DNA of 64,000 bases from Thermodesulfobacteriota bacterium (GTDB lineage: Bacteria > Desulfobacterota > Desulfobulbia > Desulfobulbales > SURF-16). Location of the stretch: positions 1-64,000 of the forward strand of contig JBDLIE010000001.1 in NCBI GenBank assembly GCA_039715015.1, read 5' to 3'. Made by a program: the position numbers. Below are positions 36,001 through 39,000 of the stretch, piece after piece. The number at the start of each line of letters is the position of its first letter. Within the stretch, counting starts at the first letter, position 1.

Positions 36001-39000
36001 TTCTTCGGCAAGTTCTCGTTTGGCATCTCCGGCAATGAGGTCAAGGTATACCTGGCCCAGGTCAATGGTGCCGGTGGCCACCGGCAGATAGCGACCGCCT
36101 GGGGTGGCCAGGGCTATCTTGCGCAGGGTACCGGCATCGAGTTTGGTAGAGACCTCTTTGCCTTCATAGGTGAGATGCTGGCGTCTGCCCTGCTCGTCGA
36201 TAAGGGGAATGGGCTGGCCCTGACGTTCGTCACCGAGGCCAATGACAATGAGACGGATACCCTCATCGCCCACCGCCTCGGCAGCATTAACCGGAAAGGA
36301 GTCATGGTCCTCGCCATCCGTAATCAGGATGATATCCTTATAGGCCTTGACTTGGTTATCAAAAACATCACGTTGGACAAGGCGCAGGGTGTCCCCGATA
36401 TTGGTGCCGCCTTTCACCTCCATGTCGGTGTTGATCTGGTCCAGCATCTGCCGAAAGAAACCATAGTCCAGGGTCAGGGGGCAGCGCACCTTGGCAGAAC
36501 CGGCAAATGCCACCAGGCTCACCCGGTCACCCTGCAGTCGTTCCACACAATCCATTATGGCCAGCTTGGCCCGTTCCAGTCGGTTGGGGGAAAGGTCCTC
36601 AGCCAGCATGGAGCGGGAGACATCAAGGAGAAAAACCACATCGCGGCCCTGCCTTTTTACCGTGGTTGGCTTTTGCTGCCAGGCTGGCCGGGCCAGGGCA
36701 ATAATAATCAAGGTCAAGGCCAGAAAGAGAATGCTGCGCTGGACAAGAACGATAAAGAGGCGGGAGAAAGTTGTTGTTTGCCCTTTACTTGCAAAGGTAC
36801 GCAGCTTTCTAGCTGATCTCTTGGCGTGGATGATCAAAACAAAGGCCAGCAGGGGCAGGGCCCAGAGCAGCAAAAGATGGTTGCCGGCCAGAAACTGAAA
36901 TTTCATGGCAACACCCCCAAGACACTCCACTCCAGACTGAGGCCCAGAGCCAGGAGAGCAAAGGCGGCCAGGACAAATTTGCTGAAATGCTCCTTGTAAT
37001 CCATATAGCGGATTGATTCGATCTCACTCTTTTCCAGACTGTCGATGGTCTCGTAGATCCCCTGTAAGGCCGTGCCATCGCCAGCCAGCCAGAATTGTCC
37101 TCCTGTTTCCCGGGCCAGGGCGGTGAGGGTTTTGACATCCACATTGACACTCCGGCCCAAGGAGAAAAAGGAGCGTTTTTTTGACTCGCCAATGCCGATG
37201 GTGTAGATCTTGATGCCCCAGTCCTTGGCCAAGGAGGCGGCCTGCATGGGTGTATGCTGGCCGGCATTATGAACGCCGTCCGTTAGCAGGATAATGATCT
37301 TGCTTTTGATTTCGTAGCCGTCCTCATCCCTGGTTTTTTCACCGGCAGCCTTAAGACGGGCGGCGGCCAGAGCCAGTCCGTCGCCAATGGCTGTGCCGTC
37401 CTCGTGACGCTCGTCTGGGGCCACCAACCGAACCTGTTTAACAAAGCCTTCAACTGCGCCATGGGCCAGGGTCAGAGGGCAGACGGTCTCGGCAAAACGG
37501 GCAAAGGCCACCATGCCGATCAAGTCGTTGGGGCGACCGCTTAATTCCTTGCCGTTGCCCAGGACAAAGTCATGAAAGGCAAGCTTCACCGCCTCCAGAC
37601 GGTTCATCTTCCGGCCTTGATAGACAAAGGACTCCGCCATGCTGGAAGAGCGATCAACAACGATTTCGATGGCAATGCCATGGCTGATCTGCTCGATCTT
37701 TTCGATGCCTTGCTGGGGCCGGGCCAAGCCGGTGATCAGCAGGGTCAGGGCCAGAAGGCGCAGGATAAAGGGCAGGTGGATAAGGCGCTGGCGTAAGGAA
37801 CGCCCGGCCCCAGCTGCTTCGCTCAGATCGGAAAAGGCCATTCCTGGCATGCTGCGTCTTTTGCTAAAGCGACGGAACACGAGGAGGGGCAGGATGAGCA
37901 GAGCCCAGAAGGCCCAGGGAGTGGCAAAGGTCATAGTCGGTCGGTCATCTTAGGGGCCATCCTCCGGATGGCGGCAGTTATTTTCACCAGCGGCCACATG
38001 TCTTGTCGTCTGGTTTGGCTAAGGGGCAGGGCTCCAGGCCTTTTTCGATTTGGGCCGCGATTTCCTCTGTCTTGCCCGGCGCAGGCTCAATGTTGCTGAA
38101 TTTTATCAGGTCGCAGTGCTCAAGCACGGCGAGGAAGATATCGCGGCTCTCCCTGGGGATCTCCTCACAGGCGGCAATGGTTGGCCCATACTCGTTGTAA
38201 GTCTGCTCCAGGCAGCGGAGTTCGAAGCGGCTGTCAAGATAGCAGCGCAGGATAAAGGCCAGCCCCTCCACCTGGTCACGGGGCGCGAGATCGGTAAGGA
38301 GCGCCATTTCAGCAAGGGCCCGCTCCTTGGGGGGCAGGCATTTGGGGCCTTTGTTTTTTAAGCGCATAAAGATCCAGATGGCCAGGGCGAGGATGACGAG
38401 GGCCCCAGCGGCCAGGGCCATGATTCTGGCCACAGGCTTGCCTGGGCCGGCAGGGGGGAGAATGTCGTCCAGGTCTTCATCTCCAGCCTGGATTTCCTGG
38501 GCGACCAGCTCCGGGCGAGGCAGGATCAATTCGGTGGTCATGTCACCTCGACGGGCAGTAATCAGCAACTCCGGAAGCTGGTAAGGGCCGGGATTGTAAG
38601 GCTCGATAAGCCACTGGCGCTCACTTTCAAGGCCAATCGCCGTTCTCCTGGTCTTGGCCTCTCCTTGATCCAGGAGGGTAAAGTCGCCAAAATTTGGTCC
38701 GGAAAAGGTGGGCAGGGCAACGGCCATATTTTCGGGGGAGGATACGGTGAGGGTGCAGAGGAGCTGGTCGGCAGCCGTCAGCAAGGGTTGGCCTTGGTCA
38801 TCGTTAAGCAGGGTGTCGCCGCTGATTGTAAGCCGGGCCTGCAGCTCTCCCTCGCTGCTTTGCAGATCAACAAGCATGGCGGCCTCTGTCTGAAACGGTA
38901 CGAACAGCAGCAGGCTGAAAAAACAGATGAGAAGCCGGGCCATCAATGCACCCTCCGTCTCTCCCTGGCCCGGAAGAAGCGGACCAGGTCAACCACGTAA

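Follow-up and report, generated by a model that had tools for sequence, protein, structure and literature searches.

At the end of a membrane protein gene in the MoxR-Bat operon of a Desulfobulbales bacterium (lineage SURF-16, assembly GCA_039715015.1), a TGA codon is followed by a single further codon and a second stop. Is this TGA a stop, or is it read as selenocysteine (Sec)? The analysed stretch of DNA, referred to as the window, comprises 64,000 nucleotides (contig JBDLIE010000001.1, positions 1 to 64,000). The frame of the gene runs for 319 codons to a C-terminal end reading ...KPDDKTCGRW, after which TGA, AAA and TAA follow (Table 1). The operon has the order moxR-DUF58-Sec-tail gene-batA-batB-batC-batD-batE. 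MoxR, DUF58, BatA, BatB and BatD matched Pfam models; BatC and BatE matched nothing beyond TPR models or, weakly, one for SH3 and were named by position. This gene order agrees with the preliminary description, which had placed an unnamed membrane protein gene between DUF58 and batA, and the gene held the same position in all tail-bearing loci with enough flanking sequence.

Table 1. Features of the MoxR-Bat locus (window coordinates)
Feature	Position	Strand	Basis or remark
Sigma-70-like promoter candidate upstream of moxR, TTGACA-17-TATTCT	40848..40876	-	best match, 10/12; consensus match only
moxR, AAA+ ATPase	39821..40807	-	PF07726, E 3.5e-64
DUF58 vWA protein	38943..39824	-	PF01882, E 1.3e-79; stop abuts start of Sec-tail gene
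Single-pass membrane protein of DUF4381 type, 321 aa with TGA read as Sec, otherwise 319 aa	37978..38943	-	ATG at 38943; tail-bearing P0010 and P0026 score above the DUF4381 cut-off
Predicted signal peptide, residues 1-22	38878..38943	-	hydropathy; hydrophobic core, ends TEAA; cleavage site inferred
BatD-like domain with Ig-like beta-sandwich fold (residues 22-150), predicted to be periplasmic	38494..38880	-	structure model, fold matches
Predicted transmembrane helix, residues 172-196, then RLKNKGPK	38356..38430	-	model, hydropathy
Predicted cytoplasmic helical bundle, residues 202-311, family motif C277-D-L-x-K-F	38011..38340	-	model, fold search
C316-G-R-W on low-confidence (disordered) tail	37987..37998	-	pLDDT <50 at 314-319; C in 27/27 tail-pattern proteins
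TGA, predicted Sec320 (CxxxU)	37984..37986	-	TGA in 11/11 loci
Lys321 codon and true stop	37978..37983	-	AAA 37981-37983, TAA 37978-37980; in 11 loci middle codon K/Q/H/T/N, stop TAA 5, TAG 4, TGA 2
Putative SECIS hairpin in batA spacer, GCCAUCC-GGA-GGAUGGC, 7 bp	37956..37972	-	loop GGA 37963-37965, 18 nt after TGA; no U-tract
18-codon frame, possible coupling bridge	37931..37987	-	GTG (overlapping TGG-TGA) to TGA overlapping batA ATG; kept only in 53-nt-spacer loci
batA (vWA)	36903..37934	-	PF07584, PF00092; start 37934
batB (vWA)	35887..36930	-	PF13519; NF047506 below cut-off
batC-like TPR protein	34694..35890	-	TPR matches
batD	32861..34690	-	PF13584, E 2.3e-25
batE-like TPR-TM-SH3 protein	32061..32864	-	TPR and weak SH3 matches; name by position

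The tail was compared at the DNA level in 11 distinct loci, representing 10 genomes from three genera of one Desulfobulbales family and one metagenome contig. In every locus exactly one codon separated the TGA from the next stop, which itself varied. The C, G and R codons of the tail showed synonymous changes between loci, indicating that selection acts on the peptide. The tail was kept while the identity of the protein body between genera was 23–33% (63–91% for DUF58). The preliminary description had reported KTCGRW-TGA-codon-stop at seven loci in two genera. The range given above is wider. The arrangement of TGA, one codon and stop held throughout it, but the two residues ahead of the cysteine varied (KV, GT and RR occur). 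The TGA alone is uninformative: it is also the final codon in 16 of 20 tail-less loci, in 12 of them by overlap with the batA start. The single, variable codon past the UGA is too short to reveal conserved coding. Neither the TGA-x-stop arrangement nor the hairpin described below occurred in any of the 20 tail-less loci, which extends the earlier observation on six distant homologues.

Among 28 tail-bearing database proteins, 27 stop at W or L and none continues with Cys, so that no Cys-for-Sec homologue was found in this set. The remaining protein, P0023, is recorded as ending in CGRWWK, with Trp at the Sec position in the same W-K-stop register. This Trp, seen in the protein record only, could be either a genuine TGG or a TGA rendered as Trp by the gene caller; a homologue search with P0023 as the query returned itself alone. 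The CGRW ending itself was less uniform than first described, with CGRL, CGKW and CSRW among the protein-only homologues. In a quick tree calculated with the tail removed and rooted at the midpoint only, the 21 tail-bearing rows formed one side of a branch with SH-aLRT support of 100, which fits a single gain of the tail. A comparison of the tail-clade alignment with 400 genomes of the order revealed no member outside the family, and neither did one with 401 genomes of the class, in which the ends were read for the best 30 of 206 matching genomes. The loose pattern CG[RK-type]W-[C/U]-x-stop was searched in 401 genomes of the phylum and matched 120; none of the 30 loci and three family-level matches examined had batA, DUF58 or the Sec-tail gene. 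The tail genomes are kin within one family, probably with one origin of the tail, and the two caveats raised at the outset, the lack of a Cys homologue and the restriction to one family, still apply.

The spacer before batA contained the second conserved element. A bacterial SECIS (bSECIS) model, as given in section 5 of PMC13188914, comprises a loop of 3–9 nt, a stem of at least 4 bp, a G at loop position 1 or 2, a distance of 16–37 nt from the UGA and a free energy of −7.5 kcal/mol or lower. In our own implementation of this model (not bSECISearch), a hairpin of this type was present in 11 of 11 tail loci and in 0 of 20 tail-less loci. The stems were wholly different between genera, yet still fully paired, and the G-first loop was kept. 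A spacer hairpin of unlike sequence in different genera had been described before, and the 11 loci confirmed this; its earlier distance of 17–18 nt widened to 16–19 nt in ten loci and was approximately 24 nt in one. The G317 hairpin core, CCAGUUUGG, recurs in the window's own genome, where it serves a formate dehydrogenase-type molybdoenzyme, MvhD and a single Sec codon of rhodanese type. All nine control UGA codons had G-bearing loops at 18–23 nt, as counted from folds. Compared with shuffled sequences, five tested hairpins had stability z-scores of −1.76 (window), −1.08, −1.02, −2.78 and −5.11, which is unexceptional in three of the five. As a null expectation, open reading frames of at least 200 codons were collected mechanically from the window's own genome. 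Among 659 ending in TGA, a stop two codons on was seen in 26 and a bSECIS-type hairpin at 16–20 nt in four; the only one with both features was the window gene. Both features co-occurred in 1 of 560 frames ending in TAG and in 0 of 970 ending in TAA. A reading of the window hairpin as a terminator was rejected, as it was not called in the terminator listing and has no U-tract.

The window's own genome encodes tRNA-Sec, selA, selB and a Sec-containing selD. selA was present in nine of the ten tail genomes; in the remaining one, which is 86% complete, selB and a selD containing TGA were found. selB and selD were found in all five other tail genomes tested. Of 40 family genomes, 37 have selA, so that the tail and the Sec machinery are not correlatable. 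The proposal of a Sec tail made by read-through is supported by the invariant TGA, the variable stop, the genus-specific stems with G-loops, the Sec machinery and the 20 tail-less loci without these features, and on these sequence data we consider Sec insertion at the tail UGA highly probable. SelB and Sec-tRNA would bind the spacer hairpin, Sec would be inserted at the UGA and, after one further residue, translation would end at the next stop, giving ...C316-G-R-W-U320-K-COOH. A release factor winning at the UGA would yield the 319-aa form without Sec.

Among the DUF4381 membrane proteins of Bat operons, the product of this gene appears to represent a selenoprotein subfamily that had not been catalogued before. 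It had no match among the 119 prokaryotic selenoprotein families in Table 1 of PMC13188914, and BatD, DUF4381, MoxR, DUF58 and CxxxU are absent from the available text of that review. The literature searched, in which the families of Haft & Tolstoy 2025 were covered via the review table and NCBIfam only, contained no mention of Sec in connection with Bat, DUF4381 or MoxR. A terminal Sec with a hairpin past the stop has a precedent in SaoC, as described in the available part of the Haft & Gwadz preprint. A second apparently uncatalogued C-terminal selenoprotein, a small cytochrome c, was observed in the same lineage; a terminal Sec is more credible here because the lineage appears to use it in a second family.

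The structure model and hydropathy predict a signal peptide, a periplasmic Ig-like domain and one transmembrane helix, followed on the cytoplasmic side by a helical bundle and by a flexible tail with the Cys and the putative Sec. The RLKNKGPK stretch following the helix would, by the positive-inside rule, place the C-terminus in the cytoplasm. The window protein had no Pfam match at E ≤0.001 and no NCBIfam 20.0 family at E ≤0.1, but two tail-bearing homologues, P0010, which is 61% identical to it, and P0026, exceed the PF14316 threshold (28.5 against a cut-off of 27.2 bits); P0017 and others score below this cut-off. PF13584 (BatD) was found in the tail-less homologues P0032 (above the cut-off) and P0131. 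The LB_053 model (NF047493, cut-off 200 bits) did not match the window protein and gave 12.2 bits for P0016 and 40.5 bits for the tail-less P0055; by sequence, the window protein is related to this family but not a member. An atlas search returned only clusters that were unnamed or labelled DUF4381 or BatD. The bundle resembled a HEPN-like arrangement (Z 10.3, rmsd 3.3, 110 aligned residues), which is below the level distinctive for bundles. Functional assignment from fold searches was dropped, as the matches of the Ig-sandwich were generic (adaptin ear; TRAP subunit, E 7e-4, TM 0.24) and those of the bundle likewise. When DUF58 and the cytoplasmic domain (198–319) were predicted as a complex, the score was 0.00, which was counted neither for nor against contact.

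What might such a tail do? If Sec is inserted, we lean slightly, by analogy, towards C316 and U320 forming a redox arm. Such an arm, working through a selenenylsulfide and attached to the MoxR-Bat complex, is also the best explanation overall, with an even chance of being correct. The two residues would alternate between a selenenylsulfide and the reduced form on an arm swinging at the cytoplasmic face of the MoxR-DUF58-Bat complex. Cytoplasmic reductants, for which thioredoxin is a guess, would re-reduce it, and it would keep or reset thiols of clients or of the complex itself, with C277, a family-wide residue in the same domain, as a candidate target. The Cys four residues ahead of the Sec and the flexibility of the tail argue for this reading, and the available text on SelS describes a reductase with a penultimate Sec and proposed pairing with Cys174 (PMC3628699). 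Against it, CxxxU is not among the motifs in Table 1 of PMC13188914, and most Bat operons work without the tail. According to the available text of PMC3557215, a redox role of the Bat operon is disputed: Bat proteins were proposed as suppliers of reducing power, and deletion of batABD in Leptospira biflexa left survival of oxidative stress unchanged.

The main rival, which we regard as unlikely, also assumes Sec insertion but takes C316 and U320, with C306 or C277, as a soft-metal site that would hold a metal or pass it to the MoxR/vWA machine or a client. MoxR ATPases with vWA partners carry out target remodelling and metal insertion (PMC13036017, available text), and further Cys residues have arisen within the cytoplasmic domain of the tail clade, at positions 306 (19/27), 244 (14/27) and 234 (13/27), with almost none in the other set. 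However, these extra residues are absent from genus g5 and most of genus g11, leaving only C277 and C316 near-invariant; moreover, there is no typical His/Cys cluster and the tail is unstructured in the model.

Less probable still is a regulatory role of the inserted Sec, in which read-through versus termination would sense selenium and alter either the C-terminus (stability, docking) or the coupling to batA. The anatomy of the gene does give two C-termini, and direct batA coupling is found in most tail-less homologues (12/20). The 18-codon GTG frame reaches the batA start in five of 11 loci, all of genus g1, but not in the other six, which have spacers of 90–436 nt, so that the bridge was ruled out as a conserved feature; the invariance of C316 points instead to Cys-Sec chemistry.

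The TGA could also be an ordinary stop behind a conserved CGRW-COOH end, with a backup second stop and a hairpin acting in mRNA stability, processing or termination. The missing Cys homologue, the frequent TGA in tail-less loci, the unremarkable stability of three of five hairpins, the short T runs after the stem in two tail loci and the general commonness of post-stop hairpins are compatible with this. We nevertheless judge it improbable: the TGA is never TAA or TAG, although the stop two codons on changes freely, and a G-first loop at SECIS distance despite full stem turnover would be unexplained, as would the loop core common to the genome's own SECIS elements. The window hairpin was not called as a terminator, and P0023 continues in the same W-K-stop register. 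That Sec is inserted into a tolerated appendage with little present function is very improbable: most Bat operons lack the tail and P0023 may have lost Sec, but tail and hairpin were kept down to 23% identity and along long branches inside the clade. A TGA that is leaky or read as Trp (CGRW-W-K), as the record of P0023 might suggest, is scarcely credible, given that 659 of 2189 long frames of the own genome end in TGA, that the tRNA with a TCA anticodon is tRNA-Sec and that a SECIS-type hairpin would be superfluous.

The putative Cys/Sec pair on one Bat subunit provides a precise residue, a compartment and a mutant set for distinguishing redox from metal handling in an envelope complex that is widespread and poorly understood, here in sediment bacteria. 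The subfamily is of a kind missed by Cys/Sec-pair pipelines and standard annotation. The available accounts state that Cys homologues are held to be near-universal for selenoproteins in reviews, that deep-Sep may miss families without them and that a C-terminal Sec was not callable by PGAP in 2022. By sequence, Sec looks like it was gained here through an added tail rather than by replacement of Cys. General impact is limited by the narrow range: a single family, and within it three genera of MAG lineages that look uncultured.

The closest relatives are the Bat-operon DUF4381 (PF14316) and LB_053-like (NF047493) proteins, whose family profile matched 12,214 representative proteins at E ≤0.001. 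They share the position between DUF58 and batA as well as the Ig domain, DILPP linker, single transmembrane helix and helical bundle with CDLxKF. The window subfamily differs by its CG[RK]W-U-x tail with SECIS hairpin and the loss of the overlap with the batA start. In addition, the K of DLxKF, near-invariant elsewhere (138/140), is kept in only 13 of 27 tail proteins, and the conserved Ala at 244 is replaced by Cys or Thr.

SaoC (NF040734), KCU-star (NF033934) and UXX-star (NF041114, NF041211) resemble the window family in having the UGA at the true stop or beside it and a short G-loop hairpin further downstream; the "star" in the latter two names presumably denotes the stop. In the available descriptions, SaoC and KCU-star proteins are likewise truncated in databases, and Sec is occasional in SaoC, a Cys-Cys family, whereas no Cys form of the window family was found. 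The window protein further differs from all three by its CxxxU motif, its membrane scaffold within an AAA+ operon and the lack of an NCBIfam sequence match. With NorQ/NorD and related MoxR-vWA systems of remodelling or metal insertion (PMC13036017) it shares the combination of a MoxR AAA+ ATPase and vWA partners; in the literature found, the Bat type has no reported client or metal, and no paper describing Sec in such an operon was found.

The predicted layout of the window protein, with one transmembrane helix, a flexible cytoplasmic tail, a penultimate Sec and an upstream Cys, resembles that of SELENOS (SelS/VIMP). SelS associates with the AAA+ ATPase p97, and SELENOK is a further comparison for the single-pass design with penultimate Sec. 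The window protein would work like these without expected homology; it had no Pfam match to either. SELENOS is single-pass and has its penultimate Sec on the cytoplasmic side; a bond between Cys and Sec has been proposed for it, and truncated forms lacking Sec occur (PMC3628699, available text). In contrast, the Cys-Sec spacing is 4 in the window protein and 14 in SELENOS, and the window protein has a periplasmic Ig domain and a MoxR contact suggested by the operon alone. It is conceivable, though we consider it rather doubtful, that the lineage built a selenoprotein from scratch, placing a Cys-x-x-x-Sec tail and a SECIS element on a non-redox scaffold with no surviving Cys intermediate and converging on the SELENOS/SELENOK design. 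If so, thiol chemistry would take place at the cytoplasmic face of the MoxR-Bat complex in every bacterium having it, and the single-pass adaptor of an AAA+ complex for membrane quality control would carry a selenium redox arm.

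The g00033 gene, encoding a DUF4381-type single-pass membrane protein of a MoxR-Bat operon, comprised 319 codons ending in ...KPDDKTCGRW, followed by TGA, a single AAA codon and TAA. The loop of a perfect 7-bp hairpin (GCCAUCC-GGA-GGAUGGC; −11.3 kcal/mol) lay 18 nt past the TGA. The operon order was moxR, DUF58, g00033, batA, batB, a TPR protein, batD and a TPR-SH3 protein, with a sigma-70-like candidate site located 5' of moxR. An 18-codon frame begins at a GTG that shares bases with TGG-TGA and closes at a TGA that overlaps the batA ATG. It was open and of equal length in 5/5 loci with a 53-nt spacer and not kept in the other 6; it possibly restores translational coupling to batA. 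In L013, L015, L016 and L017, the spacer between hairpin and batA had grown to 90–436 nt and held short low-complexity repeats (e.g. GGGGCAA, CACCCCT-like), with the stop and hairpin kept in the first 35 nt.

Locations of features of the g00033 gene, its product and other candidate or neighbouring genes
Feature	Location	Strand	Detail
g00033 start codon	38943	-	ATG
g00033 TGA	37984-37986	-	predicted Sec codon
g00033 second stop	37978-37980	-	TAA
Hairpin	37956-37972	-	
batA start	37934	-	
18-codon frame	37931-37987	-	
Hydrophobic signal	N-terminus of g00033 product		hydropathy and model
Ig-like sandwich	residues 22-150		then proline linker; hydropathy and model
TM helix	residues 172-196		basic residues after it; hydropathy and model
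Helical bundle	residues 202-311		low-confidence tail behind; hydropathy and model
Rhodanese-domain gene	26967-27266	-	in-frame TGA (HCMGFR-U, CxxxxU) and hairpin
Sec-less cytochrome c paralogue	41569-41976	+	divergent from moxR; CKSCH, end ...DPWDNDGIWFYN-TAG
ORF, presumably IS200/IS605 transposase-like by its sequence	47528-47965	+	
Fourth cytochrome c copy	C1, near 72000-72350		beyond the window
Putative Sec-tailed cytochrome c	L093:215-637 (source genome G000, contig C31)		...DCG-TGA-stop
TGA and hairpin candidate	G000 contig C30, near 24200	-	KKFVF-U-PGSIG...
TGA and hairpin candidate	G000 contig C42, near 21108	+	...RMLCR-TGA

An alignment search of 401 genomes of the class matched 206, and loci were taken from the best 30 of these 206; six named loci from genomes and two from metagenomes were added. 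The named loci duplicated genome loci and were counted once, and L008, which ends before the tail, was left out. The final set held 20 tail-less and 11 distinct tail loci, the latter from six genomes of genus g1 (the source genome included), two each of g11 and g5 of the same Desulfobulbales family, and one metagenome contig. Searching for the exact pattern across all 40 family genomes recovered the identical 10 genomes and three unrelated matches. The reading proposed in the preliminary description, TGA followed by one codon, a stop and a hairpin, held in all 11 tail loci: TGA was kept (11/11), exactly one codon (K, Q, H, T or N) preceded the next stop (11/11; TAA in five, TAG in four, TGA in two), and a hairpin fitted the bSECIS model (PMC13188914) in 11/11. 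Loops lay 16–19 nt from the TGA in ten loci and about 24 nt in genome G032. Stem sequences of the genera were unrelated (GCCAUCC, AAAAUUGCCA, GAAUAAAUAUC, UGCUGCCC), yet fully paired. As a point against the SECIS reading, stability on its own was modest in three of five hairpins tested against shuffles (z = −1.76, −1.08 and −1.02), the remaining two giving −2.78 and −5.11. Nine control Sec codons of the source genome (SelD, MvhD, a formate dehydrogenase-type molybdoenzyme, TsoA, TsoY and four rhodanese domains) had G-bearing loops 18–23 nt off, counted from folds; the core CCAGUUUGG of the G317 tail hairpin was common to 3/9.

The source genome contained tRNA-Sec, selA, selB and a selD carrying an in-frame TGA. 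Since selA was matched in 37/40 family genomes, the machinery is permissive and has no power to discriminate. Nine of the ten tail genomes had a selA match; selB and a TGA-containing selD were present in the exception, G210 (86% complete), and in the four g5/g11 genomes. On sequence grounds, a SECIS outside the coding sequence would very probably recode the UGA, yielding C316-G-R-W-U320-K.

The protein's anatomy was derived from hydropathy and an AlphaFold model (mean pLDDT 80, pTM 0.44). Owing to the predicted topology, with one TM helix and then basic residues, the tail is predicted to be cytoplasmic. Homologues matched DUF4381 and tail-less members BatD; LB_053 was related to the family with a score under the cut-off. 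Two Cys were near-invariant in the tail clade, C316 (27/27) and C277 (26/27), the latter also frequent outside it (117/140, a set including P0168 with its CSRW tail). The DLxKF lysine was kept in 13/27 tail-clade proteins versus 138/140 others, and additional Cys were gained; together, these changes suggest that the cytoplasmic domain took on an altered role. On the side of the MoxR-DUF58-Bat complex that faces the cytoplasm, the Cys/Sec pair would sit on a flexible arm and reversibly form a selenenylsulfide, resetting thiols there or on clients. We give this redox arm an even chance overall, and slightly better if Sec is present. A role in providing reducing power was proposed for Bat proteins, but deletion of batABD left oxidative-stress survival of Leptospira biflexa unaltered, and Bat function "remains elusive" (PMC3557215). 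Alternatively, C316/U320 might bind or hand over a metal, which we consider unlikely; metal insertion is possible for MoxR-vWA pairs (PMC13036017). A selenium-sensing switch is improbable.

TGA served as the stop in 16/20 tail-less loci, 12 of them via overlap with the batA start; a stop two codons on and a bSECIS-model hairpin were each found in 0/20. The source genome yielded 659 mechanical ORFs of 200 codons or more that end in TGA; of these, 26 had a second stop two codons on, 4 had a model hairpin at 16–20 nt, and one, g00033, had both. The joint counts were 1/560 for TAG-ending and 0/970 for TAA-ending ORFs. Another of the four hairpin-bearing TGA ORFs is TsoY, a known selenoprotein with a UxxV motif. 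That the TGA is a plain stop is highly improbable. The C, G and R codons of the tail varied synonymously among tail loci. The view of the tail as a functionless appendage deserves very little credence.

The tail was found in 28 of 170 retrieved proteins (g00033 product included). Twenty-seven stop at W (or L); P0023 ends in CGRWWK, which reflects either a change of TGA to TGG with the x-stop register preserved or a gene caller's decoding of TGA as Trp. Decoding of the TGA as Trp is scarcely credible. None of the 28 carried Cys at the Sec position; the earlier caveat on the lack of a Cys homologue still applies. In a quick IQ-TREE phylogeny (midpoint root, last 12 residues removed, best profile matches as outgroups), 21 tail rows formed one side of a branch versus 44 others (SH-aLRT 100). 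Bodies of the tail genera were 23–33% identical to one another, and DUF58 was 63–91% identical to that of the window. The wider protein family has many members (12,214 representatives with E up to 0.001), and its best tail-less matches lack the tail, so a single gain explains the distribution most simply. In 400 genomes of the order, no tail-clade members were found beyond the Desulfobulbales family.

Further candidate selenoproteins were observed (table). A small exported mono-haem cytochrome c ending in ...DCG-TGA-stop (L093, L094 on C27, L122-L151) had its tail matched in 30/40 family genomes, with a G-bearing-loop hairpin 15–19 nt past the TGA in 27/30 loci. One locus read D-TGA-G-TGA-TGA (U-G-U, Sec in place of Cys), and a paralogue ended in ...DNC-TGA-R-stop. 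No NCBIfam family scored above cut-off, and this cytochrome c is apparently a second uncatalogued selenoprotein family.

The g00033 product matched no NCBIfam 20.0 model, and no corresponding entry was seen in the accessible part of a 2026 review's table of 119 selenoprotein families (PMC13188914). In the available portions of BSepDB, deep-Sep, SelCysML and the Haft & Gwadz preprint, BatD was absent, as were DUF4381, MoxR and DUF58 where searched. No report of Sec in a Bat operon was found in literature excluding Haft & Tolstoy 2025 and probably the BSepDB family table. SaoC and KCU-star already provide precedents for a terminal Sec followed by a hairpin (Haft & Gwadz preprint). Comparative sequence evidence supports g00033 well as a new selenoprotein version of a known operon component, with a putative function and a narrow range. 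Human SelS is linked to the AAA+ ATPase p97. SelS is transmembrane, its penultimate Sec188 is the proposed partner of Cys174 in a reductase, and a Sec-less truncated form also occurs (PMC3628699). SelS resembles what is predicted for the g00033 product: a transmembrane protein with a penultimate Sec and an upstream Cys.
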